A DNA stretch of 64,000 nucleotides. Origin: Candidatus Moraniibacteriota bacterium (GTDB taxonomy: Bacteria; Patescibacteriota; Minisyncoccia; Moranbacterales; UBA1568). Both the position numbers and the translations under genes were made by a program. This document shows, one piece after another, positions 4,541 through 62,162 of the stretch. Position 1 is the stretch's first letter. Each line of letters starts with the position of its first letter. The DNA is taken from positions 12,108-76,107 of the forward strand of contig JAUSGT010000002.1 of assembly GCA_030648835.1 (NCBI GenBank). Reading direction: 5' to 3'. The notes beneath the pieces are model-generated. The model did not search any database. It was not told the origin of the DNA and was given only the letters and a program-made list of their open reading frames with translations.

Positions 4541-4549
4541 AAGACTGAA

Positions 4550-4888: not shown

Positions 4889-4891
4889 ATT

Positions 4892-5229: not shown

Positions 5230-6645
5230 ATGACAAACGAGGATCTCTGGAAGGCTGTACTCGGCCAAATTGAGCTTTCTATTTCCAAAGCAAATTTTAT
5301 CACCTGGTTTAAAAATACACTTATCCTGAACAACCAGGACGGAGTGGTAACCATCGGTGTCCCAAACGGATTTGCGAAAGAGTGGTTGGAAAACAAATAC
5401 AATCTGTACATTTTGCGTGCCCTAAAAAGTTTTGACGAGAGCGTCAAGACTATCCACTGTGTTATCGCGCCAGAAAGAGTGAGTAGCATAACGCCAAACG
5501 TTGATTCCCTGAAAAATGTCGACGCCGTAAAGCCGCCCGAAAACACCGGTTTTGTACGAAAAAGGCTCATTGAAAAGCCGTTTTTTACCGCAACTGGGCC
5601 ATCAACAACCACTTTTCATGAAACCAACCTCAACAACCGCTATACGTTTGAAAACTTCATTGTGGCCGAAAATAATGAACTGGCGCGAGCGGCCTGCTAT
5701 GCCGTTTCACAAAACCTGGGGATGGCGTATAACCCACTTTTCATCTATGGTGGCGTGGGGCTTGGGAAAACCCACCTTCTCCAGTCAATCGGAAATGAAG
5801 TGGCAAAAAGCTCACCGGAAAAGAGAATCAAGTATATCAATTCGGAGCGTTTTACCACGGAACTCGTTGATTCCATCAAAAATCAGAAAATCGATAAGTT
5901 CAAAGAGTACTATCAGCAAATGGATCTCCTGATTATCGATGATATCCAGTTCCTCGCCGGGCGAGAAAAGACTCAGAATGAATTCTTCCATATTTTTAAC
6001 ACTCTCTACCAAATAAACAAACAGATTGTCATATCGAGCGACCGCCCACCCAAAGCTATCCCCACGCTGGAGGAACGTCTGCGCTCCCGCTTCGAAGGAG
6101 GGATGATAGCGGACATCAGCCGCCCGAACCTCGAGACGAGAATCGCCATTTTGGAATCCAAAATCGCGGAAAAGGGCTTCATTATCGACGCCCCGGCAAT
6201 CCGCTTCATTGCGGAACACATCACCCAAAATATCCGTGAGCTCGAGGGGGCGCTCAACCGCGTTATCGCCTTTTCCGAATTCCACAAGATCTCCCCAACG
6301 CTCGAAAACACGGAGAAAATCCTTTCCCAGCTCATCGAAAACAACAAAAAAACCATCCAGGTGGAGGATGTTTTCCGTACGGTTTCGGAATTTTATGGCG
6401 TTACAAAAGAAGCCCTGGTCAAAAAAGGACGGAAAAAAGAAGTTTCCCATCCTCGTCAAGTAATGATGTTTTTCCTCCGCACGGAACTTCAAACGCCCTT
6501 CTCCGCTATCGGAGAAATTCTTGGCGGGAGAGACCATACAACCGCACTCCACGCCTTTGAAAAAATAAATACCAATAAAGAAACCCACGCGCGCCTCAAA
6601 GAGGAGCTCAGCACGCTCAAAGATCGACTCTACTACCCAGCCTAG
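5230..6645 (+). CDS. dnaA: Chromosomal replication initiator protein DnaA
   Basis: 471 aa. Walker A GVGLGKTHLLQSIGNE, an AAA+ domain, a C-terminal DnaA-box-binding domain, and the N-terminus MTNEDLWKAVLGQIELSISKANFITWF. Confidence 0.95.
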   Translation: MTNEDLWKAVLGQIELSISKANFITWFKNTLILNNQDGVVTIGVPNGFAKEWLENKYNLYILRALKSFDESVKTIHCVIAPERVSSITPNVDSLKNVDAVKPPENTGFVRKRLIEKPFFTATGPSTTTFHETNLNNRYTFENFIVAENNELARAACYAVSQNLGMAYNPLFIYGGVGLGKTHLLQSIGNEVAKSSPEKRIKYINSERFTTELVDSIKNQKIDKFKEYYQQMDLLIIDDIQFLAGREKTQNEFFHIFNTLYQINKQIVISSDRPPKAIPTLEERLRSRFEGGMIADISRPNLETRIAILESKIAEKGFIIDAPAIRFIAEHITQNIRELEGALNRVIAFSEFHKISPTLENTEKILSQLIENNKKTIQVEDVFRTVSEFYGVTKEALVKKGRKKEVSHPRQVMMFFLRTELQTPFSAIGEILGGRDHTTALHAFEKINTNKETHARLKEELSTLKDRLYYPA

Positions 6646-6909
6646 AGAAATTCAGTGGATAAGGCTGTATAACCCCCATAACCCCCGTGTATTTTTTTTG
6701 TATAGGTTCCGCGCTTCGGTGAATAAAAACAACCTCTATAAAAATTTCCCAGAGTTATCCTTACTATTACAAATATTCACCCGCATTCCATCCTAATTAT
6801 CACTCCAAAAAACCCATAGATAAAACAAATAGTCCACTTATCCAGATAGTCACAACACTAATCATAATAATAAATTTATATATATAATTAAGAGAATATT
6901 ATAACTTCT
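6646..6909. promoter_or_regulatory. Candidate oriC (dnaA-dnaN intergenic region: DnaA boxes plus AT-rich unwinding element)
   Basis: GTGGATAAG (6655-6663, reverse orientation), TTATCCTTA (6755-6763), TTATCCAGA (6838-6846). Then an extremely AT-rich tract ATAATAATAAATTTATATATATAATTAAGAGAATATTATAA at 6860-6905, immediately before dnaN. Confidence 0.6.
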
Positions 6910-8061
6910 ATGAAACTTATCTGCACCCAAGAAAATCTAAGTCGAGCAATTTCTTGTCTGGAAAGAATCGCCGGGAGACAATCCGCTTTACCGATCCTTA
7001 GTAATTTTCTTTTGGAAACAGAGAAAGGAAGATTGAAAATATCGGCAACAAATTTGGAAATAGGAGGAATTATTTATATTGGGGCAAAAATAGAAAAAGA
7101 AGGGAAGGTTGCCATTCCAGGGAAAGTGCTCTGTAACTTTATTTATAACCTACCCGCGGGGGACGTATTACAGCTGGAGAGTGATAAAGAAGGCTTAAAA
7201 ATAGAGAGCGCGGCATACCAAGTGAAGATAAAAGGAGTGGACGGAAAAGATTTTCCCATCATCCCCCAGTATAAAGAAGAATACCCCTATTCTTTCCCGG
7301 CCCAAAAATTAAAAACCGCCCTTTCCCGGCTTCTGTTTTGTGTGAGTTTGAACAACGCTCGCTTGGAGTTGACGGGCGTTCATGTATTTTTTTATAAAGA
7401 CCAGATCCATTTGGCGGCAACGGACAGTTTTCGTCTTGCCGAGGAAATTATCCTTGTTGCCGGAGGAGGAGAAAGCCAAAGCGACTTTCTTTCCAAAAAT
7501 CAAAGCCTCATTATTCCCGGGAATACCCTTCAGGAGATTATCCGCGTGATTACTCCCGAAAGCCAGGAGGTGAAAATCGCTCTCAAGGAGAACCAGATAT
7601 TTTTTGAGATAGACGGAGTACAAATAATCTCCCGCAGTATCAACGGGAAATACCCGGATTATAAACAAATTATCCCGAAGGAATTTGTACTTTCTGTGAT
7701 ATTGGAGAAAGAGGTTTTCCAAAGGGCGGTAAAAATCGCGAGCGGGTTCTCTTCTTACAACTCCGGTGAGATAGCCCTCACGTTCCAATCAGGAGAAAAA
7801 CAATGCGTAGTTTCTTCACAGTCGGCTGAGACCGGTGAGAACAAAACCACCTTGCCGATAGAAGTGCAAAAGGCCGGACCCACGTTGACGATCATTTTCA
7901 ACCCCCGGTATGTTTTAGAGGGAATAAATGCCCTGCCGGGAGAAAAGATCCTTTTTCTTGCCAACAACAGCTCTAGCCCGGCGGCGCTTCGGGCGTACAC
8001 CGAAGAGAGTGGTACTCTCGCGGGGGACTACCTCTATATTATGATGCCGATACGGAAGTAA
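6910..8061 (+). CDS. dnaN: DNA polymerase III beta subunit (sliding clamp)
   Basis: 383 aa with a three-domain beta-clamp pattern. N-terminus MKLICTQENLSRAISCLERIAGRQSALPILSNFLLE. Located immediately after dnaA. Confidence 0.9.
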   Translation: MKLICTQENLSRAISCLERIAGRQSALPILSNFLLETEKGRLKISATNLEIGGIIYIGAKIEKEGKVAIPGKVLCNFIYNLPAGDVLQLESDKEGLKIESAAYQVKIKGVDGKDFPIIPQYKEEYPYSFPAQKLKTALSRLLFCVSLNNARLELTGVHVFFYKDQIHLAATDSFRLAEEIILVAGGGESQSDFLSKNQSLIIPGNTLQEIIRVITPESQEVKIALKENQIFFEIDGVQIISRSINGKYPDYKQIIPKEFVLSVILEKEVFQRAVKIASGFSSYNSGEIALTFQSGEKQCVVSSQSAETGENKTTLPIEVQKAGPTLTIIFNPRYVLEGINALPGEKILFLANNSSSPAALRAYTEESGTLAGDYLYIMMPIRK

Positions 8062-11302: not shown

Positions 11303-12262
11303 TTATGAGAGCGTGGCAAGTTTGTTTTTAAACACACGCAGAAGAGATCGATGCATTTTCATCATAGAAGGTTTTTCTTCGGGGGTGAAATAAAGTCCGG
11401 GCATGGAGTTAAGTTCGACTACCCAGGGCCTTTTGCTCTTGTCAAACATGAGGTCGATAGTGTAGATTTTTGGGTGGAATGATTTAAAAATATTTTGAGC
11501 CCATTTCACTATAGGGAGGACTGATTTGGGGACGCTATTTTTTGGTATAACGGTCAGGCTACCGCCTTGGGCGAAATTAGCAAGATAGCTGCCCGTCTTT
11601 GGCTCACGGATATAAGTGTAGACAATCGTATCATTGACAAAGACCAGCCGCAGGTCGTGCATGCCACTTTTTATGCCCGGAACACCGCAAGAGGAATCTA
11701 TGAACTCCTGGAGAATATGCTCTCCTCGGAATGATATCTTTGAGGTATTTTTTTTAGGGAAAACCTGAACGCCTTTGCCGCCACTTTCACAAATTGGTTT
11801 GAGGACAGCTAGGGGGGTGCCTACTTTTTTCGCAGCCACCTGAAGTTCTGCATGACTCCTGACGATATAATTTTCTTTGCTCCATTGCGGGAAAAGAAGT
11901 CCGGTTACGAATTTATCATCAATGATGCGCGTGAAGATGCGATCATTGATGAATGCATAGCGCTCGGCCATCAATTCTTTTTTGTAATAGACTTCCTCAC
12001 GGCCTTTGGTCTTGTCATAGATAAGGTCCGGTTTTATATCAGAAACACGTTCCCACTTACTGGTCTTGCCGCTGAAAATCCAAGCATGCTTAAAAATATG
12101 TTTTTCGTAGTCATACCATTCATACGAGGCGCGGTACATCTGGATTCCATTTTTCTTACACAGACTATAGAGTAGCTCGTAAGAATATTGGTAATCTTTA
12201 TTATCGAACGGCCGGCTTTTCTCCCAGCGGCTTCTGCCAAAAAGAATCATTACCTTTTTCAT
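11303..12262 (-). CDS. ATP-grasp domain ligase (unassigned subfamily)
   Basis: VLKPICESGGKGVQVF is the phosphate-binding loop. DLRLVFVND and PWVVELNSMPG give the E-x-N Mg-binding motif. Together these are typical of ATP-grasp amidoligases. Confidence 0.65.
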   Translation of the reverse strand: MKKVMILFGRSRWEKSRPFDNKDYQYSYELLYSLCKKNGIQMYRASYEWYDYEKHIFKHAWIFSGKTSKWERVSDIKPDLIYDKTKGREEVYYKKELMAERYAFINDRIFTRIIDDKFVTGLLFPQWSKENYIVRSHAELQVAAKKVGTPLAVLKPICESGGKGVQVFPKKNTSKISFRGEHILQEFIDSSCGVPGIKSGMHDLRLVFVNDTIVYTYIREPKTGSYLANFAQGGSLTVIPKNSVPKSVLPIVKWAQNIFKSFHPKIYTIDLMFDKSKRPWVVELNSMPGLYFTPEEKPSMMKMHRSLLRVFKNKLATLS

Positions 12263-12273
12263 ACCGGTTGAAG

Positions 12274-13800
12274 TTATTTATTGACATCGATAAGGAACTT
12301 TCGCAGATTTTTTCGCCCGACAATAACCGGATACTCGAGGTGTGCGCGATCTATGACAGAGACTCTCGCGGGGATAGAGAGGGTATCCATAACAAGCTCA
12401 ATGTGAACCACGGGACGGTAGGAGGCCCCGTGAGAAGATTGTACGGAGGTGGTGTCGGCAAGATCGGGGACGGAAGAAAAAAGCAGTTCGCGTTCGGCTT
12501 TTGTGAGTTCTTGCATAATATCACGACCAGCTACCTTTTCATCAAAAATGCGAAGTGTTTCTGCAAATCCCAGCTCTTTCGCAAGTTCGGTATCGATAGC
12601 CGTCGAATCGGCACCAGTGTCGATTTTGGCTTCCACCTCGATTTCTTTGCCATCTTTGCCGATGAGCTTCACTTTCTCGATGGTGCCGATGACGCGTTTG
12701 CCGGAGAGTTCCTCGATTTCTTCCTCGATTTCACCGCCGAAAAGATTCATTCCAACCCGCATCCCGCGTTCGGTGGTCTTGACTTGGAGACCTTTGACAC
12801 GATTGAGCCGGCTTTTCAGCCCGGAAAAATTTGCCAGTTGGATGGAGAGCCCCGGACGGGCATTGAGTTCGAGAATGACCGGGCCGCGCTCGCGGTCGAT
12901 GGCGATATCGGCGCCGAGAAAACCGAGATGCGAAATGGCTTGGGCGTCGATGGCCATACGGAGAACATCTTTCCAGTAAGGAATCTTGATGCCAGAAAGG
13001 ATGAGCCGCGTGTTGGGCACGTATTCGATGATATGACCTTTGCCGAGAATGGCCGTGGTGGTCGTCCCGGTGGCAAGGTCGATACCGACGCCGATAGCCC
13101 CTTGTTGCAGATTGGCCTTGCCATCAGAGTGTTTGGTCGGGAGACGGAGCATGGCCATTATCGGAATGCGGTTGTAAATGATGACGCGGATATCCGGGAT
13201 GCCTTTGTAGGCGTAAGGTTTGAAAAGTTTCAAGAGTTTTAGACGCTCTTCAAAAAAAGCGATATCAGGGATATTGGAAAGAGAAAATGATCCGTCGAGA
13301 ATGTTGCGGATGTGGTTTTTCAGATCATCAACGGTGACTATGGAGCCGTCAGCCTTGACCCAGTTTTCACTGAAAGGATTTGTCTCATTTTCTCCTATGG
13401 GTTTTTCTGGTGTATTTGTTGAGTCGCTTGGTGTCGTTTTCGTCGCCGGAAGAGGCGTGGCGCTTGGGCTCGAATGAGCATTCAGGGGTGAGGACTGAGG
13501 GGCGGTAGATTTTTTCCGTCCATAGACAACGAGAATTCCTTCGCCACCGAAACCGCGGTTTGGTTTCAAAGCGAAACTATTGGGGAGCGTGGAGAAGTCG
13601 AACTTTTCCAATTCCTCGTGGTTTTCGATCTTCGCGATAAGCGCCGGGACACCGAGATTATTTTTTTTCAGGGTACGCTTGCAGAGGAGTTTGCTATCGG
13701 CAATCTCCATCCCACGTTTGCGGTTGGAAGGGCGGATGTAATCGAGGTTTCTCGCATTCATACCGAGAAGCCCCTGGCTTTTTTTGAAAAAATCGAACAT
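12274..13800 (-). CDS. RimK-like ATP-grasp ligase fused to a C-terminal retropepsin-like (Zn_protease/COG4067-type) domain
   Basis: N-terminal MNARNLDYIRPSNRKRGMEIADSKLL...ALKPNRGFGGEGILVV...ILELNARPGLS has RimK-related ATP-grasp motifs. A low-complexity S/T/P linker follows. The C-terminal 150 aa carry EAKIDTGADSTAID, the D-T-G-A aspartyl-protease motif. The start is reassigned to the Met at 13800, so the gene does not overlap the upstream gene. Confidence 0.65.
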   Translation of the reverse strand: MFDFFKKSQGLLGMNARNLDYIRPSNRKRGMEIADSKLLCKRTLKKNNLGVPALIAKIENHEELEKFDFSTLPNSFALKPNRGFGGEGILVVYGRKKSTAPQSSPLNAHSSPSATPLPATKTTPSDSTNTPEKPIGENETNPFSENWVKADGSIVTVDDLKNHIRNILDGSFSLSNIPDIAFFEERLKLLKLFKPYAYKGIPDIRVIIYNRIPIMAMLRLPTKHSDGKANLQQGAIGVGIDLATGTTTTAILGKGHIIEYVPNTRLILSGIKIPYWKDVLRMAIDAQAISHLGFLGADIAIDRERGPVILELNARPGLSIQLANFSGLKSRLNRVKGLQVKTTERGMRVGMNLFGGEIEEEIEELSGKRVIGTIEKVKLIGKDGKEIEVEAKIDTGADSTAIDTELAKELGFAETLRIFDEKVAGRDIMQELTKAERELLFSSVPDLADTTSVQSSHGASYRPVVHIELVMDTLSIPARVSVIDRAHLEYPVIVGRKNLRKFLIDVNK

Positions 13801-13867
13801 ACATTGGAATTTGGAATCTAGAATCTCGTATTTAGCTGAATACCAAGTACAAAATATCAAATACCAA

Positions 13868-14524
13868 TTATAAATAGCGAGCGATTTTGCGAAAACGGAA
13901 ATATTCCGTGACGCGCAGCCCCGTCCATTTCCCGAGGGAGAAATTGATGAGGAAAGTGAAGAGAATAATCCAGGGGAAGCGGAGAATGAGCGTGGTAAGG
14001 GCGTTCCAGCTGATGAGATAATAGCCAATAACGGAGATGAGAAGTGTTTCTGCCGCCAGAATGAAAGCGATGTGGCTGCCCTTCTCAATTTGCGTTGCGA
14101 CGAATTTTTCCGCCAGCGTAATCATGATGAGCAAGGGGAAAATACTCACCGCGGCCAGACCGGTACGCTGGTACATGCCACCGATGACGAGAATGATGAG
14201 AATAGCGAGAGAGATGATGGAGAGGGTGATAGCGACGCGCGGCAGATAGAGCAGGCGGAACCTCTTGAGGGCGAAGCGGACGATCATACCGACAACAATG
14301 ACGCCGACAAAGATAGCGATGCCGTATTTCACGCCATTCGGATCAAATGCCAAGAGGGCGAAGGTGATGATTGACGGCGTGTAGATGCCGAAGGCCTTGA
14401 TACCGATGACTTGGCGGAAGAAGGCTACCAGTGTCGCGATGACGGGAAGCATGAGGAGGAGGAGCACCGTCTGTATCGGAACGCCTTGCTCGACAAAAAA
14501 CGTGATGAGGGGATGATATTCCAT
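13868..14524 (-). CDS. Multi-pass integral membrane protein (6-7 TM), first gene of the ATP-grasp operon
   Basis: 218 aa, highly hydrophobic with about 6-7 predicted helices. It is 67 nt upstream of the RimK-like fusion on the same strand. Confidence 0.5.
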   Translation of the reverse strand: MEYHPLITFFVEQGVPIQTVLLLLMLPVIATLVAFFRQVIGIKAFGIYTPSIITFALLAFDPNGVKYGIAIFVGVIVVGMIVRFALKRFRLLYLPRVAITLSIISLAILIILVIGGMYQRTGLAAVSIFPLLIMITLAEKFVATQIEKGSHIAFILAAETLLISVIGYYLISWNALTTLILRFPWIILFTFLINFSLGKWTGLRVTEYFRFRKIARYL

Positions 14525-15142: not shown

Positions 15143-15925
15143 TTACGATTTACGATTTTGGATTTTAGTATGAGCCATAGTCCAGAACACTTTGAAAAGC
15201 TCGCGCTGATTTCTGGCTAAGAGAGGATCATGAATTTCTACCAAGTAATGCGGGCGGTTACGAGTCTGCCCCATGATGACATAATCGCCGATAATCCAGA
15301 AACTGGAATCAAAATTATTTTCCGCTGGCAGAATTTTATATTGGCGCTCGGGATATTTCTTCCGCATCTTTTCTTCAATCATAGCTTCATTGGTGAAAAA
15401 ACGCACCTTTTGATTTCGCGGACCATGTTTCCACAACCAATCGACATACTTGCTGTAGCTTTCGGTAAACGTGTGATCATGGTAGCCCCACCAGGTATTG
15501 TCGCGCTGCAGACCGCTCTTGGCCCACAGCGGATACTGTTTATACAAATAATCATTCAGATCAGCTTCTTCGACGAATTTGATTTTCGGGACGGAGTAAG
15601 TTGCTTGAGAGGGGAGGGCGGCGAGATCCTTGCTCATTTTTTTTGCAAGAACCAGCCGTTTTTTTAAGAGCGTTTCTTCTTTGGCAAACATCTGTTCGAG
15701 AGCCGCGGGCTTTTCGGCATAGAGGTAAGCAACTTTAGCCCCCAGATCTTCAGAAATCAAACCCAACCCATCGAGTTTGCGGGAAATGCTATAGACGGTC
15801 GTCCGGTTGATGCTCGTTTCTTTGGCCACACGGGCAGGAGCGATTTTTCCGGCACGCAAAACTGCGAGATAGACTTCCCGTTCGTTTTCATTCAGTCCCA
15901 GTTGAGCGAACTCTTTTTCCAGCAT
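15143..15925 (-). CDS. TrmB-family transcriptional regulator
   Basis: N-terminal wHTH LGLNENEREVYLAVLRAGKIAPARVAKETSINRTTVYSISRKLDGLGLI is typical of TrmB. Confidence 0.65.
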   Translation of the reverse strand: MLEKEFAQLGLNENEREVYLAVLRAGKIAPARVAKETSINRTTVYSISRKLDGLGLISEDLGAKVAYLYAEKPAALEQMFAKEETLLKKRLVLAKKMSKDLAALPSQATYSVPKIKFVEEADLNDYLYKQYPLWAKSGLQRDNTWWGYHDHTFTESYSKYVDWLWKHGPRNQKVRFFTNEAMIEEKMRKKYPERQYKILPAENNFDSSFWIIGDYVIMGQTRNRPHYLVEIHDPLLARNQRELFKVFWTMAHTKIQNRKS

Positions 15926-16118
15926 AGACAGTTATGGCTCTAGTATACCTGTTGTTGGCAAATAGTCAACAAAAGTACATAATATAGCGTAAATAAGCTG
16001 ATTTAAGAACTATAAATAGTTGACAAAAAACCAACAATACTATAGACTCTCTTGTTACTTAACAACTAGGGCATACTACCCAACCGATTCCCGGCGGCGT
16101 TCCGGGGTGGAGAATAAA

Positions 16119-16730
16119 ATGAGTGGACCTGCTGATGAAGTTTATAATCTGTGCATAATCGATAGCATCCTCGCCGAATGTATGGCTACGGCTAGCCACG
16201 AAATACGTCAGCAAGAAGCATCGGCGACGAAACGCGCCATCAAAGCCAGAAAAGAAATGGAAAAATATGCACAAAAACATTTTGACAAGTACGGAGAATG
16301 GCCAGGCGGCTGGGACGAAATTCACGATATGGAAGAGGCGGCGGCGGCCTTAGCCGCTCAAGCGGAACATATCGAGAATATGACTATGATTCAACAGCAA
16401 TGGTTGAATGGAGGATGGTCTTCAGAAACATGGAAGGCCGAAATTACCGACTATCTGAAGAACAATGAAAGAAAGGACGTTAAGGATAGAGATGAGTACT
16501 ATGACAACATGCAGAATAAGAGATATTGGAAAGACCGTGGTGCCACGGTAATAAAGAAAATGTTGAAATATATTGACCTTCGAGAATTTGATCTCCTAGA
16601 CGAGAAGCGGCTTGTTAAGGACTTGGCAAAGTTCGGAGAGCAACTCCGAATTAGGGCAACTCCAGATCCGAAAGGCACTTCAGCCGAAGCATGCGCCATG
16701 TTGGTACTGTTCTATCAAACTCAGCATTAG
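16119..16730 (+). CDS. Hypothetical protein (acidic, W-rich; no recognisable domain)
   Basis: ORF with the start moved to the Met preceded by GGGGTGGAGAAT. An intrinsic terminator follows it. No family recognised. Confidence 0.45.
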   Translation: MSGPADEVYNLCIIDSILAECMATASHEIRQQEASATKRAIKARKEMEKYAQKHFDKYGEWPGGWDEIHDMEEAAAALAAQAEHIENMTMIQQQWLNGGWSSETWKAEITDYLKNNERKDVKDRDEYYDNMQNKRYWKDRGATVIKKMLKYIDLREFDLLDEKRLVKDLAKFGEQLRIRATPDPKGTSAEACAMLVLFYQTQH

Positions 16731-19009: not shown

Positions 19010-19759
19010 TTACTTGCCGAATAGTTTTGTTACCCAGCCAAAAAAGTTGAAGGACTCTTCATTGTTATTAAGTGTCTCTTGAACTTTATCTTGTTGCTGT
19101 TGTATGGTCATAATTTGTTTCTTTAGAGCTTCTTTGAGGTCGCTATCCGATGTCTCATTCAAGAGACTGTCCAGTGTTTTGAGCTTACTTGTATTATTTG
19201 TTAATGTGTTTTTTAGAGTAGTTGTATCTGCATCGTTGGTACCCATCAAAAAGTTTCTTACTTTACTGTTGTTGATGTTATCAATAAGTACTTCTTGAGC
19301 GGCAACATCGGTTGCAATCTGCTTTTTAGCAGCTTTTATGTAGCCTCTCTCTTCAGTCGTTTTTTCATTTTCAGTTTTTATTTCGACATACGCGCTGTCT
19401 TTTGGGGGATCTTTCTCGGCTGTGTTTCTGATAGCGGGAGCTGTAGTTTTCGTAGCCGGAGCAGTCTTTGGCGCAGTCTCTGTGGTTGGCTTCTCTGCAG
19501 CTATTTTACCAGCCTCTTTGGCCTTTTTACAAAGTTTTTTTACCTCATCGCTCTGTGCAACTTTTCCAGGTTCACACGCATTCAAACATTTATTGATGTC
19601 ATGCTTCGGCCAACCTGGGGTACAGTATTTTTTTAGAGCCCGGTATCTCTCGTATTGCTTCACATAAGAACCTCCTATAGGAGCGGCGACTGAGGCATAA
19701 GACAAGCTGTAGTAAGAAAAAGCCCCAAGTAAAGCAAGAGAAAATGCCATTATTTTCAT
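19010..19759 (-). CDS. Secreted low-complexity/coiled-coil protein, hypothetical
   Basis: Signal peptide MKIMAFSLALLGAFSYYSLSYASVAA. K/T/A-rich central region. A C-terminal predicted coiled coil rich in N/T/L/Q. Confidence 0.5.
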   Translation of the reverse strand: MKIMAFSLALLGAFSYYSLSYASVAAPIGGSYVKQYERYRALKKYCTPGWPKHDINKCLNACEPGKVAQSDEVKKLCKKAKEAGKIAAEKPTTETAPKTAPATKTTAPAIRNTAEKDPPKDSAYVEIKTENEKTTEERGYIKAAKKQIATDVAAQEVLIDNINNSKVRNFLMGTNDADTTTLKNTLTNNTSKLKTLDSLLNETSDSDLKEALKKQIMTIQQQQDKVQETLNNNEESFNFFGWVTKLFGK

Positions 19760-21395: not shown

Positions 21396-24300
21396 TTACA
21401 AATCAGTGACGCGCTTCACTTCGTCGAGCGTGGTTAACCCTTCAAGGACACAGAGGATGCCGTCTTGGAGGAGGGTGATCATTCCAAGCGCGACCGCTTT
21501 CTCCTCGATTTCACTGACGAGCGCGCCATGAGCGATGAGCTCGGAGAGTTCTTTGCCGATGAGGAGCGTTTCGGCGATGACCATCTGCCCCGTGAAACCG
21601 GTACCACTACAGGTCGTACAGCCTTTGCCATGAGAGAGTCGCATTTTTTTGGTAAGCGCATCTTTGTCTGGTAATGATGCTAAGACCTTTTTAATAATTT
21701 CCTTTTCGGCTTCAGTTGGAGGGAGAGATTCTTTGCACTTGGCACAGATTTTTCGGACCAAACGCTGAGCCATGAAAAGATTGGCGGTGTTGGCGAGGTC
21801 GTCGTTCGTCACTCCCATCGCGGTCAGGCGGGAGACGACACCCGCAGCCGAATTGGTATGGAGGGTGGAGAGGACGAGGTGCCCGGTACTGGCGGCCTGG
21901 ACGGCAATTTGCGCGGTTTTTTCGTCACGGATTTCACCGATCATCAGAATATCGGGATTCTGGCGCATAAGCGAACGGAGCGCGGTAGCGAACGTATAGC
22001 CCTCGCTCTCTTTGGTTTGGGTTTGGAGGATGCCTTGGATCTGGTATTCGATCGGATCTTCAACCGTGATTATTTTTACTTCGGGCTTATTCAGTTTGGC
22101 GAGAATACTGTAGAGGGTGGAAGTTTTTCCGGAGCCGGTCGGGCCGGTGTTCAAGATTATCCCGTGTGGTTTGCCGATAGCCGCGTAAATATTTTCCAGA
22201 TTTTGTTTGCGGATGTGGAGCGTGTCGAGGTCGAGTTTGACGACGGACTGATTGAGAAGGCGCATGACAATTGTTTCACCGAAACCGCCGAGGATGATGG
22301 AAAGACGGATATCAACGGTATCAGGCTTTTCCTCCCCGGCCTTTTCGATGGTAAGAGAAAAACGACCATCAATGGTACCGGAACGTTCACCCGATTTGAG
22401 CCCGGCCGCCAGTTTGATTTCCGCGATGAGGGTCGGGTATTCGGTAATGGGAATGCGCGCGGCCGTTTGGAGAATGCCATCGATGCGATAGCGTACGTCG
22501 ACCATGTCTCCTTGAGGTTCGATATGGATATCTCCGGCGCGCAAGAGAAGCGCCCCGGCAAAAATAGCAGGCAGGCGTAATTGGGAGTCGATCCCGGCGA
22601 TATAGCCGGCAAATTTTTTGAGTGAAGTGGTTTCTTTTTTTGTTTTTGTGAAAAGGATTTCGGTAATGTGGGTGGAGCGGGAAAGTTCGCTCGGCATCAA
22701 CTCGGCATAGATATTTTGGAGAGATTCTGTCTGATCGGCGACGCGCCAGACTTCATCGAGCGTCGTGATGCCTTCGAGCGCTTTGAGAATTCCATCTTGG
22801 GTCATCGTGATCATCCCGTTTTCCAGCGCGGCGCGGAGAATTTCTTGCTCGTTCCCCATATTGTTGACGATCTTTATGATTTCTTCCGTCATGGTGAGCA
22901 CTTCAAATATGCCGATGCGGCCATGATAACCGGTGAAATTGCATTTTGCGCACCCGACCGCCTTGAAGAGAGAATCCACTTTTTTGGGGAGCGAAATTTT
23001 GGCTTTGGGAGAAATGATGGTGATGAGTTTCAGGATAGAATCAATGGTTTCCCGAGCCGGCGCGTAGGAAGCTTTACAGTCTGGGCAGAGGATGCGCACC
23101 AAGCGCTGTCCGATGAGAGCGTTCAGCGAGGCGGTGATGAGATCCGGCTTGACGCCGAGCTCCATAAAGCGCGGGATGGCGGCAGCGGCGCTGTTGGTGT
23201 GGAGGGTGGAAAATACGAGGTGTCCGGTAAGCGCGGCATTGACGGTGATGTCGGCGGTTTCCTCGTCGCGAATTTCCCCAACAAGAATCATATCGGGATC
23301 CTGGCGGACGATAGCGCGGAGCGCGGTGGCGAAGGTATAATCCTTGTTTTTGGAGATTTCCGTCTGCACGATGCCGGGCAGGGTGTATTCGATCGGGTCT
23401 TCGACAGTGATGACTTTTGTATCCGGCTGGTTGACGTGGTTCAAGAGTGTGTAGAGTGTCGTGGTTTTTCCGGAGCCGGTTGGACCGGTATTCAAGATGA
23501 GACCGTTCGGTTTGGAAATTTGTTTCAAGACTTCTTCATAAGCCAGCCCACGCAGTCCAAGTTTTTCGACATCGACGATGACATCGTCACCGGAAAGGAG
23601 GCGCATATTGATGTTTTCGCCATATTTTCCCGGGATGCTCGAGACGCGGACATCGATGCGCTTCTGGTCGAGATCGACGAAGAAGTGCCCATCTTGAGCT
23701 TCTTTGCGGATATTGAGGCGCATCTTGGCGATCATTTTGATACGTGAGAGGAGGAGGTGGTAGAGCTCTTGGGGGAGATCGCCGACTTCTTGGAGCACAC
23801 CGTCGATGCGGTAGCGCAGGCGGATGGCAGATTCTTCCGGCTCGAGATGGATGTCGCTGGCTCGGAGTTTTCTGGCGCCGGCCAAAATGATTTCCATCGA
23901 ACGCGAGGTGTTGAGCTTCTGACCTTCCTTGAGTGAGATAAGCTCCCCAAAATCTTTTTCGAATTTTTCCAAGTCGCTATCGCCGAGAGAGACACGCACG
24001 AGATCGAGAGCATCGAGAAAGGTGCGCTTGGAGTAATATTCCCAGGCGTGTTTGATGGACTGTTTCGAAATGAGGTACAGCTCTATCTGCCAGCCGTGTT
24101 TCTCGGCGAGAGCTTGGATGTATTCCAGCGCCCCCTTGTTCTTTGGATCGAGAAGAGCGAAACGGGTGAGCGTACTTTTTTTGCTGAAGAGGATGACGTT
24201 CCATTTTTTGGATTCAGCTTCCGGGAGGAGCATGATATCCTCGGCGTTTAAAGGGAAAGCGTGAAGATCGATGTATGAGAAGCCGCTTTTGGCGGCCAAG

Positions 24301-24410
24301 AGCGAGGCCTGTTCTTCCATCGAAATCTCGCGCATTTTTTTCAAAATCGCTTGTGTTTTTTCTTCTTTTTGAGAAGAGGGAGTTGTATTTTGGTGAACCA
24401 CCTTTACCAT
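21396..24410 (-). CDS. Tandem-duplicated type II/IV secretion ATPase (GspE_N + two complete PilB/GspE N2-ATPase cores in one polypeptide)
   Basis: First core: Walker A LILNTGPTGSGKTTTL, an Asp box, His box TLHTNSAA, and a tetra-Cys CPDC...CAKC. Second core: Walker A IILNTGPTGSGKTSTL, VLSTLHTNSAAG, and CAKC...CTTC. An N-terminal T2SSE_N-like domain precedes them. The start is moved to MVKVVHQ (24410). Confidence 0.85.
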   Translation of the reverse strand: MVKVVHQNTTPSSQKEEKTQAILKKMREISMEEQASLLAAKSGFSYIDLHAFPLNAEDIMLLPEAESKKWNVILFSKKSTLTRFALLDPKNKGALEYIQALAEKHGWQIELYLISKQSIKHAWEYYSKRTFLDALDLVRVSLGDSDLEKFEKDFGELISLKEGQKLNTSRSMEIILAGARKLRASDIHLEPEESAIRLRYRIDGVLQEVGDLPQELYHLLLSRIKMIAKMRLNIRKEAQDGHFFVDLDQKRIDVRVSSIPGKYGENINMRLLSGDDVIVDVEKLGLRGLAYEEVLKQISKPNGLILNTGPTGSGKTTTLYTLLNHVNQPDTKVITVEDPIEYTLPGIVQTEISKNKDYTFATALRAIVRQDPDMILVGEIRDEETADITVNAALTGHLVFSTLHTNSAAAAIPRFMELGVKPDLITASLNALIGQRLVRILCPDCKASYAPARETIDSILKLITIISPKAKISLPKKVDSLFKAVGCAKCNFTGYHGRIGIFEVLTMTEEIIKIVNNMGNEQEILRAALENGMITMTQDGILKALEGITTLDEVWRVADQTESLQNIYAELMPSELSRSTHITEILFTKTKKETTSLKKFAGYIAGIDSQLRLPAIFAGALLLRAGDIHIEPQGDMVDVRYRIDGILQTAARIPITEYPTLIAEIKLAAGLKSGERSGTIDGRFSLTIEKAGEEKPDTVDIRLSIILGGFGETIVMRLLNQSVVKLDLDTLHIRKQNLENIYAAIGKPHGIILNTGPTGSGKTSTLYSILAKLNKPEVKIITVEDPIEYQIQGILQTQTKESEGYTFATALRSLMRQNPDILMIGEIRDEKTAQIAVQAASTGHLVLSTLHTNSAAGVVSRLTAMGVTNDDLANTANLFMAQRLVRKICAKCKESLPPTEAEKEIIKKVLASLPDKDALTKKMRLSHGKGCTTCSGTGFTGQMVIAETLLIGKELSELIAHGALVSEIEEKAVALGMITLLQDGILCVLEGLTTLDEVKRVTDL

Positions 24411-24524
24411 ACCATTTGTTTTTTTGTTTGTGCCCCCATTGTACCTCAAAATGAGGTGCTTCGGCAAAAGAAAAACCCAGCTCAAGTAACTGGGTGAACA
24501 GAAACATTGAAAAGGAGGAACTCT

Positions 24525-32709: not shown

Positions 32710-33432
32710 TCACTCGATGCTGTTCCATGCCATTTCGAAAAGTGAGCGGTAGGTTTTGACCACATCTTCGCTTTCGATGACAACGGCCATCAGCTCATTC
32801 TTGTAGGAGAAGATGGCGATCTTGTTGCCATAAATGGCATTGTCTGAAGGTAGCTCGAAATTTTCCGGGGCCGTTTTGATTTGATACGTCTCACTTTCAT
32901 ACTGTTTGCGGAAGCTTCTTGATACGGGATCATCCATTTGGATTTCTCGTACTGAGGTATTCCTCTCCGCAGCCCTGGCGATGTGTTTATGGATGCTTTT
33001 CATCAGGTTTTCGGGAATGGATCCGATAGAAGCCACAAACCAAATTTCTTTTTCAGCAAAAATTTCATTATAGAGTTCATTTATTTCCCGCTCTCCCTGA
33101 TAGAAGCGCACTTTGGGTTTTTCGGCTTTGGAATTATAGAGAGCGAGGATCTCTGGCATAGCGATGTGGATTTCTTCATTTTGCTCTTTGCGAGCGGCGA
33201 GCAGAATCTCCGGTGACTTGGCCGTGTAGAGGGTTTTGGATTTTTTGGGCATCTCGGTGAGTAGCCCCTTCTGGCGTAGCTCCTGGAGTATTACATAGGT
33301 AGTGGGTCGCTTGACACCGGATTTCTTGGAAATGGTCGGCGCGGAGCTTGTCCCCAGTTCCAAAAGGGCCAGGTATATACTGGCTTGTTTTTCGTTCAAT
33401 CCAAAATATTGCAAAGTCTCTCTGGTATCCAT
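32710..33432 (-). CDS. TrmB-family transcriptional regulator
   Basis: N-terminal wHTH QYFGLNEKQASIYLALLELGTSSAPTISKKSGVKRPTTYVILQELRQKGLL. Paralogous to the regulator at 15143-15925. Confidence 0.65.
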   Translation of the reverse strand: MDTRETLQYFGLNEKQASIYLALLELGTSSAPTISKKSGVKRPTTYVILQELRQKGLLTEMPKKSKTLYTAKSPEILLAARKEQNEEIHIAMPEILALYNSKAEKPKVRFYQGEREINELYNEIFAEKEIWFVASIGSIPENLMKSIHKHIARAAERNTSVREIQMDDPVSRSFRKQYESETYQIKTAPENFELPSDNAIYGNKIAIFSYKNELMAVVIESEDVVKTYRSLFEMAWNSIE

Positions 33433-33629
33433 ATTTCACAGTATACATCCTTCTTTCTAAAATGTCAATACTTTTGACTACATAATATAATTATAACTTA
33501 AATAAGCCATAATATGCTAATTTAAATGTATATTAATATTGACTAAACGGCAATTTTCATGTATATTAAGGAGTTACCAAGATACACAGCAGGTAACACC
33601 ATTCCTTAACAACCGTAGAGGAGAGAACC

Positions 33630-34187
33630 ATGAATAAATTCGGATGGATTCTGGTACTGGCATTGCTCGCTTGCCCGGCTATCGCTGGGGAAACAAGCTT
33701 CTGGATTGAGCCGCAGGTCGTGTACAACAAAGAAAAAAGCCTCTCGCGTATCGACGCCGGGTTGAGCGGGAACATTGCCGAGTCCATTGGCTACTTTGCC
33801 TTTGGTCAAGCGCTCTCCAATGGTTACAGCCAGCTCTATGGCGGACCGAATTGGAAGCCGCTTTCATGGCTCGAAGTGGGAGTGGGGGTCGGAGCGGAAA
33901 GTGTGAAGCCTTCACTTCGCAGGAGTGCCTACTTCCTGGCTACCGAGGGAAAGGTCTCTGCCCTCGGCATCTACGAGAACGGGGGATCGGGCCGATTTCG
34001 TAAATTGGTTGCTACATACCAAATTACGGAATCGCTGAAGCTCGGAGTGATGAGCGAAACCTATCTTGGCTTTGGTCCGAGAGTGGAATACGCGGTCACC
34101 AAAAGCATCAGCCTGTGGGGTGCGGTTCTTCGGGATCATGAAAGCCAAACCACCAACGCTGTTTTCGCCACTACTATTAATTTTTAG
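33630..34187 (+). CDS. Secreted beta-barrel (OMP-like) protein, hypothetical
   Basis: Signal peptide MNKFGWILVLALLACPAIAG. About 8 amphipathic beta-strand segments with alternating hydrophobic residues. C-terminal ...AVFATTINF ends in Phe. Confidence 0.5.
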   Translation: MNKFGWILVLALLACPAIAGETSFWIEPQVVYNKEKSLSRIDAGLSGNIAESIGYFAFGQALSNGYSQLYGGPNWKPLSWLEVGVGVGAESVKPSLRRSAYFLATEGKVSALGIYENGGSGRFRKLVATYQITESLKLGVMSETYLGFGPRVEYAVTKSISLWGAVLRDHESQTTNAVFATTINF

Positions 34188-34215
34188 TAGTGGCAGTTTT
34201 TTTCAAGGAGAAATT

Positions 34216-44510: not shown

Positions 44511-44945
44511 ATGAAGTACATCAATCTGATTTTGGCAGCTTTACTGGCAATGGCCGCGGGCACGGTGGCAGCTGATCGCGGTGGGCATCGTGGCGATCAT
44601 TATCGCGGTGTCGATCGTGGTTATCACCGTGGTGCGCCAGCTGTGCGTTACGTCGATCGCGGCTACTATCGTAGCTCGCCGCGCGTCTATCGCCCCGGTT
44701 ATGGTCATGGCTACTGGGACTCATTTGGGTTCTGGGTAACGACGGCAGCGGTTGTAATCGGATCGGCGGTAGTGATTGATGCAGTAGTCAACCGCTCACC
44801 GGTAGTCTCCGCACCTCGCGCCTGCTACAAGCGGCAACCGATGAACGACCCGAGTGATGGTCAGCCCCTCTACGACCAGAACGGCCAACCGCTGACACAA
44901 CTCGTGTCGGCCCAGTGCCCCGTGCAGGTAGTGCGGCAGTACTAA
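44511..44945 (+). CDS. Secreted Arg/Gly/Tyr-repeat protein, hypothetical
   Basis: Signal peptide MKYINLILAALLAMAAGTVAA. Repeats DRGGHRGDHYRGVDRGYHRG...YRPGYGHGY. One predicted C-terminal TM and two Cys. Confidence 0.5.
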   Translation: MKYINLILAALLAMAAGTVAADRGGHRGDHYRGVDRGYHRGAPAVRYVDRGYYRSSPRVYRPGYGHGYWDSFGFWVTTAAVVIGSAVVIDAVVNRSPVVSAPRACYKRQPMNDPSDGQPLYDQNGQPLTQLVSAQCPVQVVRQY

Positions 44946-47441: not shown

Positions 47442-48074
47442 ATGCTTGCCATAACCGATCCGATTTTTCTTCTCAAATTTGCCATCGTCGGAATACTTTT
47501 CGGAAGTATCTTTTTTTATGCGTTGTGGTCTTTGATCGCACGGCGCTGGCTCTCGGTCAATTTGTATGATCTCTTCGTATACATGACAGTGGGGTTCATG
47601 GTAGCCGTGTATACGGAACCGATTCATGATTACGTGTATCGTTATTTCTTTGGAGAGTTTCTCTGGACATATCAGGTCTGGCCTATTTTTTCCGGCGCCA
47701 GTTCCGGCTTAGCTTTTATTATGTGGCCATTTTACGGGTATCATCTGTATTTTTTCACTCAAACGCTTCACGGGTATGGGGTCCATCTCCCGACCTGGCT
47801 GAAGGGGAGTATTCCAGCGCTCGATGGCGTGCCTTTCGATATAGCAGTGAACGGCGCCACGCTTTTCTTCTTCAATATTATTTTTTTCTACTATCCGCGT
47901 CCGGAATTGTGGCATCTCTCTTCCTGGTGGGTGATGCCGTTCTACTTCGTGAGCGGGATGATATACGCTTATGTGCTCCGCCATCTGCTGGCAAGGAAAA
48001 AACAGTGGCATATCCCGCTTGTATGTTACGGACTGGGTTTACTCGGGATACTCATCGGGGACTTCTTTTTTTAG
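47442..48074 (+). CDS. Integral membrane protein, hypothetical (aromatic-rich, about 6 TM)
   Basis: 210 aa, hydrophobic, W/Y/F-rich. Confidence 0.45.
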   Translation: MLAITDPIFLLKFAIVGILFGSIFFYALWSLIARRWLSVNLYDLFVYMTVGFMVAVYTEPIHDYVYRYFFGEFLWTYQVWPIFSGASSGLAFIMWPFYGYHLYFFTQTLHGYGVHLPTWLKGSIPALDGVPFDIAVNGATLFFFNIIFFYYPRPELWHLSSWWVMPFYFVSGMIYAYVLRHLLARKKQWHIPLVCYGLGLLGILIGDFFF

Positions 48075-58546: not shown

Positions 58547-58621
58547 TCCGCGGTAGCTCAGCGGTAGAGCGAGGGACTGTTAATCCCCAGGTCACAGGTT
58601 CGAATCCTGTCCGCGGAGCCA
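58547..58621 (+). tRNA. tRNA-Asn (anticodon GTT), CCA encoded
   Basis: TCCGCGG acceptor. GCTCAGCGGTAGAGC D-arm. Anticodon loop CTGTTAA. T-arm ACAGGTTCGAATCCTGT. CCGCGGA-G-CCA. Confidence 0.85.
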
Positions 58622-60190
58622 CATGGGATTTGCGTCGCCGAAAGCGACGCTTTTCTGTTTTCTGGAGCGGTTTTTCAGAGGTTCGAATGTGCCTAAATTT
58701 TCTTCTTTTGAATTTGAGACAAGAATCAGTGGTAAAAGCGCGGAATCCGCATCAATGCTGATGTTTTTGTCTTTTAGGAGGAGGTTCGAACCTAGGGCGG
58801 ATAAAATAACCTTTCTGGCATGCTGACCTCGCTCGGTGAATGATTCTTGGGCGTCACTGGCGAACCGAAGAATATTATCAGCGGTCTGAAGCCAGCTGTC
58901 GACTCGGTTGTCGGTATCGTTCAGAAGTTCGTGCAACTTTGATTTTTCCTGATTGACCGTTGATTTCTTGCGTGTAAATTCTTCCTCGCTGATTTCACCG
59001 GCCGAGCGCATGTCGATAAGTGCGTCGAGCTTGTGGACGCAGGCTTCATAATTTTTCTGTTGGTTGGCAAGGATGGCGTTTCGATCATCGGCTTCGCGTC
59101 CGTTTTCATTTTGAAGCCATTTCATCGCCCAGTCGTGAAATTCCTGAGGCGGCCGAACACGCGCTAATGTGCTGGTGACCTGTCTTTCCAATTCTTTCAC
59201 CTCGATGCATTTCTGACCGCACGGTCCTTTTTGTTTGGTGCAGTGGTAATAAGTATAATAATGGACATTGCCATTCTTATTTCTTTTTGTTTTATTTTCG
59301 GCCGTGATCATAGCACCACATTCGCCGCAACGAATCATACCAGTATAGGCGAAGGTGTGTGTTTCGGGTTTCGGTTTGCTGCCTCGGCCGAGAAGTGCCT
59401 GGACGCGATCGTATTCTTCTCTGGTGATCATCGGTTCGTGTTTGCCTTTGTGCCAATTTCCGCTGCCTTGCGGCCACTCGAACCAGCCGTAGTAAAAAGG
59501 ATTATAAAGCACTCGATAGAATCCGCTGCGCGCCAGCTTTTTGAAGCCCCATTGATTGACGGCAATCTCATGGACTCGCGGTGCCGTGTATGTGCCGCTT
59601 AAAACCATATCAAACATTTTGCGAATAATTGGAAACATTTTCGAGTCCTTGCGGATCGTCTTGAATCCTTTTTGTTTATCCGGCGTATTCAAATATCCGG
59701 TCGGCGCCGGGCCGGGATGCCAACCGAGTTCGACTTTGCGTCTGAGGCCGCGTTTCACATCGATGCCTTTGTTATCATTTTCCAATTTCGCCTGGCTACA
59801 CAAAAGATTCAGCAGGAATTTATCATTGGGCGTATTTTTGAATGCTTGCCCGGGAGTTTGTATTTGGAGCAGCTTATTTTGATCCATGAGATAAACCAGA
59901 TAGCCGGTATCCATCGAATTTCTTGAAAGACGATTTGGATGCCAAGTTAAAATTCCATTGGCTTCGCCTTTCTCGATGCGGCGCATCATTTCATTGAAAA
60001 TTTTTCTGCCTGGCGCCTTGGCCGAGTAGGATTCTTCAAGCAAGTTCACGATTTGAACCTTTTCGCGTTTGGCCAGTGTTTCCAATTCGCTCTTTTGCGA
60101 ATCAATGGAAAGCACTTGGCGGTCTTCCTGCTCCGACGATTTTCGAGCGTAGAGAAAATATTTGAGTTTTGGTTGCGCTTCCTGATTCAT
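58592..60190 (-). CDS. Large serine recombinase (integrase)
   Basis: N-terminal resolvase domain YARKSSEQEDRQVLSIDSQ with the catalytic Ser. Recombinase domain. Zinc ribbon CGECG...HYYTYYHCTKQKGPCGQKC. Coiled-coil. The ORF reads through the tRNA terminator hairpin and ends inside the tRNA-Asn 3' half: ...MWLRGQDSNL is the antisense of the tRNA T-arm. The start is moved to MNQEAQPKLKYFLYARKS. Confidence 0.85.
   Translation of the reverse strand: MNQEAQPKLKYFLYARKSSEQEDRQVLSIDSQKSELETLAKREKVQIVNLLEESYSAKAPGRKIFNEMMRRIEKGEANGILTWHPNRLSRNSMDTGYLVYLMDQNKLLQIQTPGQAFKNTPNDKFLLNLLCSQAKLENDNKGIDVKRGLRRKVELGWHPGPAPTGYLNTPDKQKGFKTIRKDSKMFPIIRKMFDMVLSGTYTAPRVHEIAVNQWGFKKLARSGFYRVLYNPFYYGWFEWPQGSGNWHKGKHEPMITREEYDRVQALLGRGSKPKPETHTFAYTGMIRCGECGAMITAENKTKRNKNGNVHYYTYYHCTKQKGPCGQKCIEVKELERQVTSTLARVRPPQEFHDWAMKWLQNENGREADDRNAILANQQKNYEACVHKLDALIDMRSAGEISEEEFTRKKSTVNQEKSKLHELLNDTDNRVDSWLQTADNILRFASDAQESFTERGQHARKVILSALGSNLLLKDKNISIDADSALLPLILVSNSKEENLGTFEPLKNRSRKQKSVAFGDANPMWLRGQDSNL
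58632..58663 (+). terminator. Rho-independent terminator after tRNA-Asn
   Basis: GCGTCGC-cgaaa-GCGACGC-TTTTCTGTTTTCT. Confidence 0.7.
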
Positions 60191-60191
60191 A

Positions 60192-60944
60192 TTATTTTTT
60201 AAAAAGCGGCAGCGAATTTTCGTATTGCAATAAATTTCCGCTGTTTGAGATGAATATTCGAATGGTCGGGTATTTCGGTTCGGCTTCGAGCTCGGCTGGT
60301 GTTTTATACTCCTTATCCTCATAGAGCCATTCCCAGCGATCATTCTCATTGTCTTTGGAGACTGGTTGTGCTGTGAAGTTATCTTTTATCGAAGAATACA
60401 TTTTTGGCAGGGCATGTTCGAGATATCTCTCGCTGATAGTTTTAATTTGTTCAGTGCTTATCGGTGGGGAGAACAGTGCACTGCGCGAGTCATCGCAAGT
60501 TGCTTGGCCTTTCGGATAAACCAATCCAACATTGACCATCTCATGCGTTTTAGGAAATACTTCGAATCGGTAGACTTCGCAGCTATCGGATACGAATTTG
60601 GTTGATTCATAAATGTTCACAGTTCTTTGCCATTCTTGTGGAGTGGTTATGTGACTGCCACCGCCTCCGGGAAGCGGTTCGCTTGATCCGACCGTGAAAT
60701 TTGACGGCGCTTGCGAGCTTATAAAAATTACCGGATAATTTTCATCGCCCATAAAATTGGCAATAGTTTGCTCGTCTTGTTGCAAGTCTTTCTGGGTTGG
60801 AGTTTGCCGTTTTTGTGTTTGCTCTTGGGCTCCGAAATTGCCCGAAAGCGGTGCCTTCTTTGCTCGGAGGTTATAAACCCCGACAATCGCCACCATAGCT
60901 GTTACGGCTGAAATTATGGCGATAGATTTTGTGTTTTTTGTCAT
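60192..60944 (-). CDS. Hypothetical membrane-anchored protein (island cargo)
   Basis: N-terminal TM IAIISAVTAMVAIVGVY, then a roughly 220-aa extracytoplasmic domain with no recognised family. Confidence 0.4.
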   Translation of the reverse strand: MTKNTKSIAIISAVTAMVAIVGVYNLRAKKAPLSGNFGAQEQTQKRQTPTQKDLQQDEQTIANFMGDENYPVIFISSQAPSNFTVGSSEPLPGGGGSHITTPQEWQRTVNIYESTKFVSDSCEVYRFEVFPKTHEMVNVGLVYPKGQATCDDSRSALFSPPISTEQIKTISERYLEHALPKMYSSIKDNFTAQPVSKDNENDRWEWLYEDKEYKTPAELEAEPKYPTIRIFISNSGNLLQYENSLPLFKK

Positions 60945-61233
60945 AGTTTTTTTGTTAATTATTAGTTATCGACCCAAGCATAACATGCGCCCAAGGCTGA
61001 AAGAAGTCAAATGCCAAAATTGCTGTTGTTTAAAGGTTTTTTAGGAGTAGTTGCCTTGAAATCCGATGAAGTTTCAATGAAGAGTTGATGAAGTGTTTTC
61101 TCTGAAATCTACCCCAGTTTCACCCAAGCTTTACCCCAACCTCTATTCGGTATAATTTTTTGACGGCCGCGCCGTCTTTATTTAAGACTAGTCTTGATAA
61201 TTTTTCTTATTAAAGTACTTCTTATTATAGAGT

Positions 61234-61942: not shown

Positions 61943-62162
61943 GGTTGTTCACTACATTTTTATTGAAATCATCGATAGAGGGCTCGCCCATATAGGTGAT
62001 TTTATAAAGCTTGAAAAGATTATTGGCGCGCAAATTTGCTTCCTCATCAGAAAGTCGCACGCCGTAGCGTTTTTCATAGAGCTCGTTGAATTCTTCGATG
62101 GCTTCTTGAGATAGCATAAAAAGACTGGCCCAATTGGGACTAGTCTTTATCTGTCTACTCAA
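61917..62162 (-). CDS. Hypothetical small protein (island cargo)
   Basis: 81-aa ORF, acidic. No domain recognised. Confidence 0.25.
   Translation of the reverse strand: MSRQIKTSPNWASLFMLSQEAIEEFNELYEKRYGVRLSDEEANLRANNLFKLYKITYMGEPSIDDFNKNVVNNHEYQTNLN

Follow-up and report, generated by a model that had tools for sequence, protein, structure and literature searches.

A 185-residue protein encoded in a 64,000-nucleotide stretch of contig JAUSGT010000002.1 from a Candidatus Moraniibacteriota bacterium (the whole stretch is called the window below) was analyzed by structure prediction and family-wide sequence comparison. The results strongly support a minimal 12-stranded transmembrane beta-barrel of the outer-membrane type that is Sec-exported, conserved and under selection in a lineage apparently lacking an outer membrane. 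It is best described as a new, unannotated outer-membrane beta-barrel family, a known fold in an unexpected lineage. The original prediction was an outer-membrane protein (OMP) of about eight strands in a genome that otherwise looked streamlined and monoderm. Its reading frame was placed correctly (plus strand, 185 residues). The barrel protein has the following features.

33630..34187, plus strand: coding sequence of the barrel protein, 185 residues, C terminus ...AVFATTINF
33630–33686, plus strand: predicted signal peptide, about residues 1–19, cleavage between AIA and GE
Residues 20–185 (about 166 residues), plus strand: predicted mature 12-strand beta-barrel, last residue Phe

Predicted structure

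The structure was predicted with AlphaFold2 from a 15-sequence alignment. The mean predicted local distance difference test score (pLDDT) is 89.3 and the predicted template modelling score is 0.76; the five models all score 88.6–89.3. A helix at residues 3–13 and a low-pLDDT linker are followed by twelve strands of 8–12 residues, and all connections between strands are 2–5 residues long. Twelve strands were found in two independent AlphaFold2 models. This replaces the eight strands first counted, and the proposed OmpW/OmpA-TM/OmpX type gives way to a barrel of KdgM, NanC and PcoB size. Foldseek matched the model to KdgM (TM-score 0.63/0.67) and to the designed barrel TMB12 (E 6e-6). All of the strong structural matches are membrane barrels.

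Outward- and inward-facing positions were compared using DSSP strands and a 57-sequence family alignment. Mean Kyte-Doolittle hydrophobicity is +1.24 at outward and −0.97 at inward positions. Aliphatic residues or Phe make up 58% of outward and 21% of inward positions, charged residues (DEKR) 7% and 23%, and Gly 7% and 18%. The family-wide gap in hydrophobicity between the two faces, 2.22, lies above all of 2,000 within-strand shuffles in which the better register was always chosen (1.06 ± 0.23, maximum 1.93), and the amphipathic strands of the original prediction are thereby upheld. In strand 5 (LEVGVGVGAE), LVVVA faces outward and EGGGE inward. The invariant or near-invariant polar residues W25, E27, Y70, K76, E90, R97, E116, and R151 map to the inward face, and the lumen of the window protein carries 6 basic and 8 acidic charges.

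A hydrophobic outside with a charged, Gly-rich lumen is what a membrane barrel enclosing a water-filled lumen shows, and the opposite of the polarity of a soluble barrel or sandwich. In the model, the hydrophobic belt and the polar and Gly-lined lumen fit a small, possibly solute-specific, water-filled channel. The soluble beta-sandwich first raised as an alternative is rejected, as it does not agree with the predicted 12-strand barrel, its membrane-barrel matches, or its polarity. If the protein were instead a soluble beta-barrel, secreted or bound to the wall and carrying, say, a lipid or another ligand, its hydrophobic surface would have to be buried by oligomerization or bound lipid and it would form no channel; with the polarity reversed from that of soluble barrels, we consider this improbable. 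An oligomeric beta-pore-forming toxin was also rejected. Such a toxin needs a soluble monomer that gives one hairpin, whereas here a single chain closes the whole 12-strand barrel and has no soluble domain.

Both ends of the protein agree with the original prediction. The C-terminal Phe had been taken as an OMP hallmark, and 153 of 185 family members (83%) end in F, W, or Y, typically as ..NFSF, ..NYSF, or ..NYQF. Position −2 is mostly F or Y across these members, and the window protein ends ..TINF. The N terminus, MNKFGWILVLALLACPAIA followed by GE, reads as a Sec signal peptide with Lys in the n-region, a hydrophobic core, and an A-x-A cleavage site, and the modelled helix at residues 3–13 falls within it. 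An N-terminal hydrophobic run is present in 180 of the 185 members. A lipoprotein reading was rejected, as Cys15 in an LLAC context is found only in the closest relatives and the A-x-A site followed by E is general across the family. In some orthologues (locus L001, 10001–10723; locus L018; proteins P0005 and P0008), the signal-like segment and its A-A site followed by E are preceded by an additional transmembrane helix at the N terminus and by a basic loop.

Family and genomic context

At E ≤ 1e-3, a profile search of 1.84 billion cluster representatives retrieved 683 proteins, of which 371 pass E ≤ 1e-10 and 43 pass E ≤ 1e-30. Almost all of them are 170–210 residues long. Organism names are given for few of the 683 clusters; named members come from Moranbacteria, Kaiserbacteria, Parcubacteria, or the "Patescibacteria group." Judged by these names and by long-contig contexts, this is a large, unannotated family found mainly in the Candidate Phyla Radiation (CPR, Patescibacteria).

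Searches with the window protein against Pfam (E ≤ 10), NCBIfam, and PDB sequences returned nothing meaningful. Fifteen members had no Pfam match at E ≤ 1, and 57 diverse members gave one weak match to DUF6733 (E 0.003) and nothing else in Pfam (E ≤ 0.01) and NCBIfam. The family profile found only chance matches in PDB (an antidote protein at E 0.015 and a kinase) and did not recover KdgM or NanC. The family has no match in PHROGs, which argues that the gene is not phage-related.

The window protein is 100% identical to hypothetical protein Q7S04_01170 from a Candidatus Moranbacteria (CPR/Patescibacteria) metagenome-assembled genome (MAG), where it is encoded on a 635,596-bp contig. The window gene order TsaE-PolA-Fpg-DUF3048-holA-TrmB-barrel is also found at loci L001 and L010, and at L017 and L018 an orthologous TrmB gene lies directly upstream of the barrel gene. 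Across these four loci, the barrels are 47–63% identical to the window protein. Other orders are DnaA-YidC-PBP1...RuvC-YebC-TrmB-barrel (L008), RecA-FtsK-barrel-NusA (L007), and DnaA-DnaN-...-TrmB-barrel (L026). On contigs of Kaiserbacteria and other Patescibacteria, the barrel gene lies amid housekeeping genes. The ratio of nonsynonymous to synonymous substitution rates (dN/dS) is 0.10–0.22 against five orthologues, with saturated synonymous sites.

The barrel gene is a long-standing, selected component of CPR genomes, neither a contaminant nor a relic. A functionless gene, either a decaying or neutral passenger from a Gram-negative or a contaminant of assembly or binning, might be suspected from its guanine-cytosine (GC) content (52.9%, against 47.4% for the window) and from its relatives in Betaproteobacteria. 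That reading is barely credible and largely refuted by the position of the gene inside a 635-kb CPR contig, the synteny kept around barrels only 47–63% identical, the low dN/dS, the gene's own promoter, ribosome-binding site and terminator, and the hundreds of divergent family members. Contamination, misassembly, and a pseudogene were rejected on these grounds.

A distant member, P0164, is encoded at locus L025 (5209–11758) between genes for a MacA-like membrane-fusion protein and an ABC ATPase on one side and two MacB/FtsX permeases on the other, near a Por_Secre_tail-domain protein. The MAG is unclassified, with 39% GC and contigs of up to 722 kb. With this arrangement, part of the family may be connected with an efflux system.

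Gene regulation

The barrel gene and a divergent TrmB-family gene share an intergenic region that holds both promoters. The signals and the regulator gene are as follows.

33539..33567, plus strand: sigma-70-type promoter of the barrel gene, TTGACT, 17 nucleotides, TATATT (consensus scan, 10/12 matches)
33566..33609, plus strand: nested inverted repeat directly past the −10 box, TTAAGGAGTTACC...GGTAAC..TCCTTAA (inverted repeats I2 and I4)
33620..33625, plus strand: ribosome-binding site GGAGAG, 4 nucleotides 5′ of the ATG (direct sequence reading)
34167..34204, plus strand: intrinsic-terminator-like hairpin, 10-bp stem over the stop codon, then a T-run (terminator scan)
32710..33432, minus strand: TrmB-family regulator, 240 residues, divergent from the barrel gene (Pfam PF01978, E 1.8e-15)
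33468–33440, minus strand: promoter-like site of the TrmB gene, TTGACA-17-TATACT (promoter scan, 11/12 matches)

From these signals, the barrel gene looks like a self-contained transcription unit of one gene, begun by a promoter and closed by a terminator of its own. A TrmB gene (PF01978) lies divergent and directly upstream of the barrel gene in the window and at L001, L002, L017, L018, L010, L008/L009, L011, L024, and L026. The pairing spans at least four unrelated neighborhoods and at least three TrmB lineages, and the TrmB proteins are only 23–41% identical between groups. At L011 (970–3159), a single TrmB gene is flanked by two 194-residue barrel paralogues. The arrangement TTGAC(A/T)-17-TATA(C/G/T)T is kept upstream in the orthologous loci L001, L010, L017, and L018. 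The repeat at 33566–33609 contains a conserved CCATTCCTTAACAA motif, and GTTACC..GGTAA and CATTCCTTAACAA recur upstream in orthologous loci. The repeat is a candidate operator for the adjoining regulator or a hairpin in the 5′ untranslated region. We infer that the barrel gene is probably controlled by the divergent TrmB-type regulator.

At L001, L010, and L018, a small unrelated open reading frame (ORF) lies between the conserved promoter and the barrel gene. The window has a second TrmB-family regulator at 15143–15925 (minus strand), only 25% identical to the one at 32710–33432 (minus strand). It is of the type that adjoins the barrel gene at L008 and L011, and here it lies beside RuvC and an unrelated 236-residue ORF. 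The ORF at 16020–16730, next to this second TrmB gene, was compared with the barrel gene and is not a paralogue.

Homologues in Betaproteobacteria

A scan of GTDB species representatives detected family members in one MAG each of Kaiserbacteria, Patescibacteria, "Betaproteobacteria," and Rhodocyclaceae. The Rhodocyclaceae contig (L006, 60% GC) is genuine: the gene directly upstream of the barrel gene encodes a DMT/EamA transporter 79–95% identical to Sulfuritalea/Rhodocyclaceae proteins. One of these Sulfuritalea/Rhodocyclaceae DMT relatives is encoded on a 3.24-Mb contig (L012). There, an island at 3555–7661 encodes an ATP-grasp protein, a SET-domain protein, an EamA/DMT transporter, and then a distant barrel member (E 2e-11). 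The island has 55–59% GC, against 63–70% in its flanks, and toxin-antitoxin modules lie at its borders. The island observations also concern L006, L013, and L014; at L013, the upstream part of the island occurs a second time, together with ECH/ParDE genes, and is cut off at the locus edge.

Outside Rhodocyclaceae, all named homologues of the DMT protein (50–54% identity) are from CPR (Minisyncoccia, Paceibacterota, Patescibacteria). In a small neighbor-joining tree, the barrels from Betaproteobacteria branch in three separate positions among CPR sequences, and one such group (L004/L020) is 53–55% identical to a Kaiserbacteria copy. The three tree positions and the CPR affinity of the DMT protein indicate repeated gene exchange between CPR and groundwater Betaproteobacteria, whichever side was the donor. 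The presence of the family in true diderm Rhodocyclaceae/Sulfuritalea chromosomes argues that the fold is compatible with an outer membrane. Transfer between CPR and Betaproteobacteria may also be a clue to hosts. A literature search for a host link between Sulfuritalea and Patescibacteria found co-occurrence lists only.

Cell envelope and proposed function

The window encodes rnpA-yidC-dnaA-dnaN, PBP1, FemAB, a Mur ligase, LytR_C, MscL, RuvABC, PolA, primase, sigma-70, and a fused double T2SSE ATPase. FemAB and LytR_C are taken as typical of Gram-positive envelopes. This gene content, together with the exact match to a Candidatus Moranbacteria protein, agrees with the streamlined, monoderm-like genome described originally. 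The reported absence of genes for the machinery of beta-barrel assembly (BAM) and for Lpt also held: Pfam scans of about 50 ORFs in the 64-kb window found no Omp85/POTRA, Lpt, Lol, or TolC. Nor did Pfam listings covering some 150 kb of homologue-bearing CPR loci show an outer-membrane biogenesis gene. Groundwater ultra-small CPR cells imaged by cryogenic transmission electron microscopy have a surface layer and no outer membrane, and they attach to hosts with two lipid layers, i.e., Gram-negatives (He et al. 2021, PMC7906910). Comparative genomics groups Chloroflexi, CPR, and Dormibacteraeota as a clade of monoderms from which porins were lost (Witwinowski et al., bioRxiv 2021.05.31.446380). 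No prior description of OMP-type beta-barrels or porins in CPR/Patescibacteria was found in the literature.

The protein could be an ordinary OMP if the Moranbacteria lineage had an outer membrane that has gone unrecognized and its genome encoded a BAM-like insertase at some other place. It has every OMP sequence hallmark, among them a C-terminal beta-signal that looks canonical (in relatives, ..NFSF or ..NYQF). Close relatives occur in diderm Betaproteobacteria, and the 64 kb covered belong to a contig of at least 635 kb. This reading is weakened by the lack of outer-membrane biogenesis genes in the window and the homologue-bearing loci, by the imaging and comparative genomics just cited, and by the FemAB and LytR_C envelope genes, and we find it very doubtful. 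Of the original prediction of an OMP in this genome, an outer-membrane-type barrel in a CPR genome stands; the outer membrane that it implied is unsupported, as the window has no genes to build one and CPR are described as monoderm.

Insertion into the cytoplasmic membrane of the cell itself would place the barrel in the only membrane that the cell is known to have (PMC7906910). After Sec export, the protein would enter from the outer-leaflet side and serve for uptake, through a channel that is narrow or gated. Hardly any of the barrel lies in loops outside the membrane, the charged and aromatic residues conserved in its lumen point to a channel that is constricted and specific, and the extra N-terminal transmembrane helix of some homologues would hold them at the membrane. 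Small OMP barrels can also fold spontaneously into phospholipid bilayers in vitro. An open beta-barrel pore would, however, dissipate the ion gradients of an energized membrane, a lumen wall rich in Gly (strand 5, EGGGE) speaks for a cavity that is open and not plugged, and we know of no bacterial precedent. We therefore regard this alternative as unlikely.

The best explanation as a whole, to which we give an even chance, is a Sec-exported minimal 12-strand barrel channel, TrmB-controlled and BAM-independent. The protein would be exported by Sec and lose its signal peptide, and transcription of its gene would be set by the TrmB-type regulator. The barrel would have to assemble and enter a bilayer without BAM, because its producer apparently has neither an outer membrane nor BAM. 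Designed, loop-less transmembrane beta-barrels are reported to fold into vesicles without BAM in a cell-free system (PMC13079971). The target bilayer could be the envelope or outer membrane of a Gram-negative host, the contact zone, or shed vesicles, and the barrel would give a metabolically dependent symbiont access to small solutes. Placing the target outside the cell's own energized membrane is tentative, and we judge it less likely than not. It is favored on three grounds: an open pore in the cytoplasmic membrane would be costly, the hosts known from groundwater are Gram-negative, and CPR and Gram-negatives have exchanged the gene.

Several points weigh against this explanation. The barrel structure is predicted, not solved. 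We know of no case in which a monomeric OMP-type barrel is delivered, from outside, to another organism's outer membrane that contains lipopolysaccharide. Barrels that are still unfolded are prone to aggregation when periplasmic chaperones are missing. Moranbacteria have no known hosts. TrmB-like regulators are numerous in CPR genomes, so recurrent adjacency is not proof of regulation, and five loci in a CPR context (L003, L005, L007, L015, and L025) have no adjacent TrmB gene.

OMP-type transmembrane beta-barrels count as a hallmark of diderm envelopes and of insertases of the BAM/SAM type. Here, a conserved, selected, regulator-paired family of at least 683 sequence clusters is found mainly in a radiation described as monoderm. 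Either CPR envelopes are misunderstood, or such barrels assemble without BAM, or they are weapons or tools against Gram-negative host membranes. Each possibility bears on the diderm-to-monoderm debate and on nutrient acquisition by ultra-small episymbionts. In its broadest form, our proposal is that CPR widely encode a self-inserting, loop-less OMP-type barrel, exported to a bilayer other than their own, notably the host outer membrane at the attachment site, as a TrmB-regulated conduit for stealing small metabolites, or else that some Paceibacteria have an unseen outer lipid layer; we offer it as a conjecture that may well fail. If it is true, repeated exchange with Rhodocyclaceae/Sulfuritalea would mark a host lineage. 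The protein is small, barrel-only, and easily synthesized, which makes the question directly testable in vitro. The family merits a Pfam/NCBIfam entry, given that one member is misnamed "family 52 olfactory receptor."

Other features of the window

Other unannotated secreted or membrane ORFs in the window (19010–19759, 44511–44945, and 47442–48074) are not barrel-like. The fused ATPase is a 1,029-residue ORF at 21396–24485 (minus strand) with two T2SSE stretches (PilB/GspE-type secretion or pilus ATPase; 733 bits in total) and an MshEN domain, and by appearance it is a tandem-fused double ATPase. A cluster at 11303–14524 (minus strand) encodes a RimK-like ATP-grasp protein, a 604-residue ATP-grasp protein fused to a Zn-protease-like domain, and a 7TM_transglut membrane protein. 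A tRNA-Asn gene (58547–58621) adjoins a large serine-recombinase-like ORF (58592–60349, minus strand), identified from its translation and not by a profile match. GC content drops to 39–44% toward the window end, and the region 58547–64000 resembles a mobile element integrated at tRNA-Asn.

Comparison with known barrels

The small 8-strand barrels OmpW, OmpA-TM, and OmpX share a signal peptide, amphipathic strands, and a C-terminal Phe with the window protein, which differs from them in having 12 strands. Among 12-strand outer-membrane barrels, PcoB (copper channel, 7pge), the COG4313 channel 4rl8, Tsx, OMPLA, and the autotransporter/intimin translocators have no sequence relation to it, and the window protein is barrel-only, with no passenger, plug helix, or catalytic residues. 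The designed TMB12 (9fdg) is set apart by origin: the window family is natural and conserved, and it has polar residues that are invariant in the lumen, along with a signal peptide and a regulator dedicated to it.

KdgM and NanC (Pfam PF06178; KdgM 4pr7/4fqe, NanC 2wjr, VhGalP 8xua) have the same 12-strand monomeric barrel fold. No sequence homology to them is detectable (no PF06178 match), and identity in structural alignments is 6–14%. The window protein lacks their long extracellular loops, with every loop at most 5 residues, and its lumen is mixed and slightly acidic (+6/−8), in contrast to their basic tracks for acidic oligosaccharides. Its organism is a CPR bacterium with no known outer membrane. 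By analogy, the barrel probably works like a specific porin of the KdgM/NanC type or a small channel of the PcoB type, as a protein outside PF06178.
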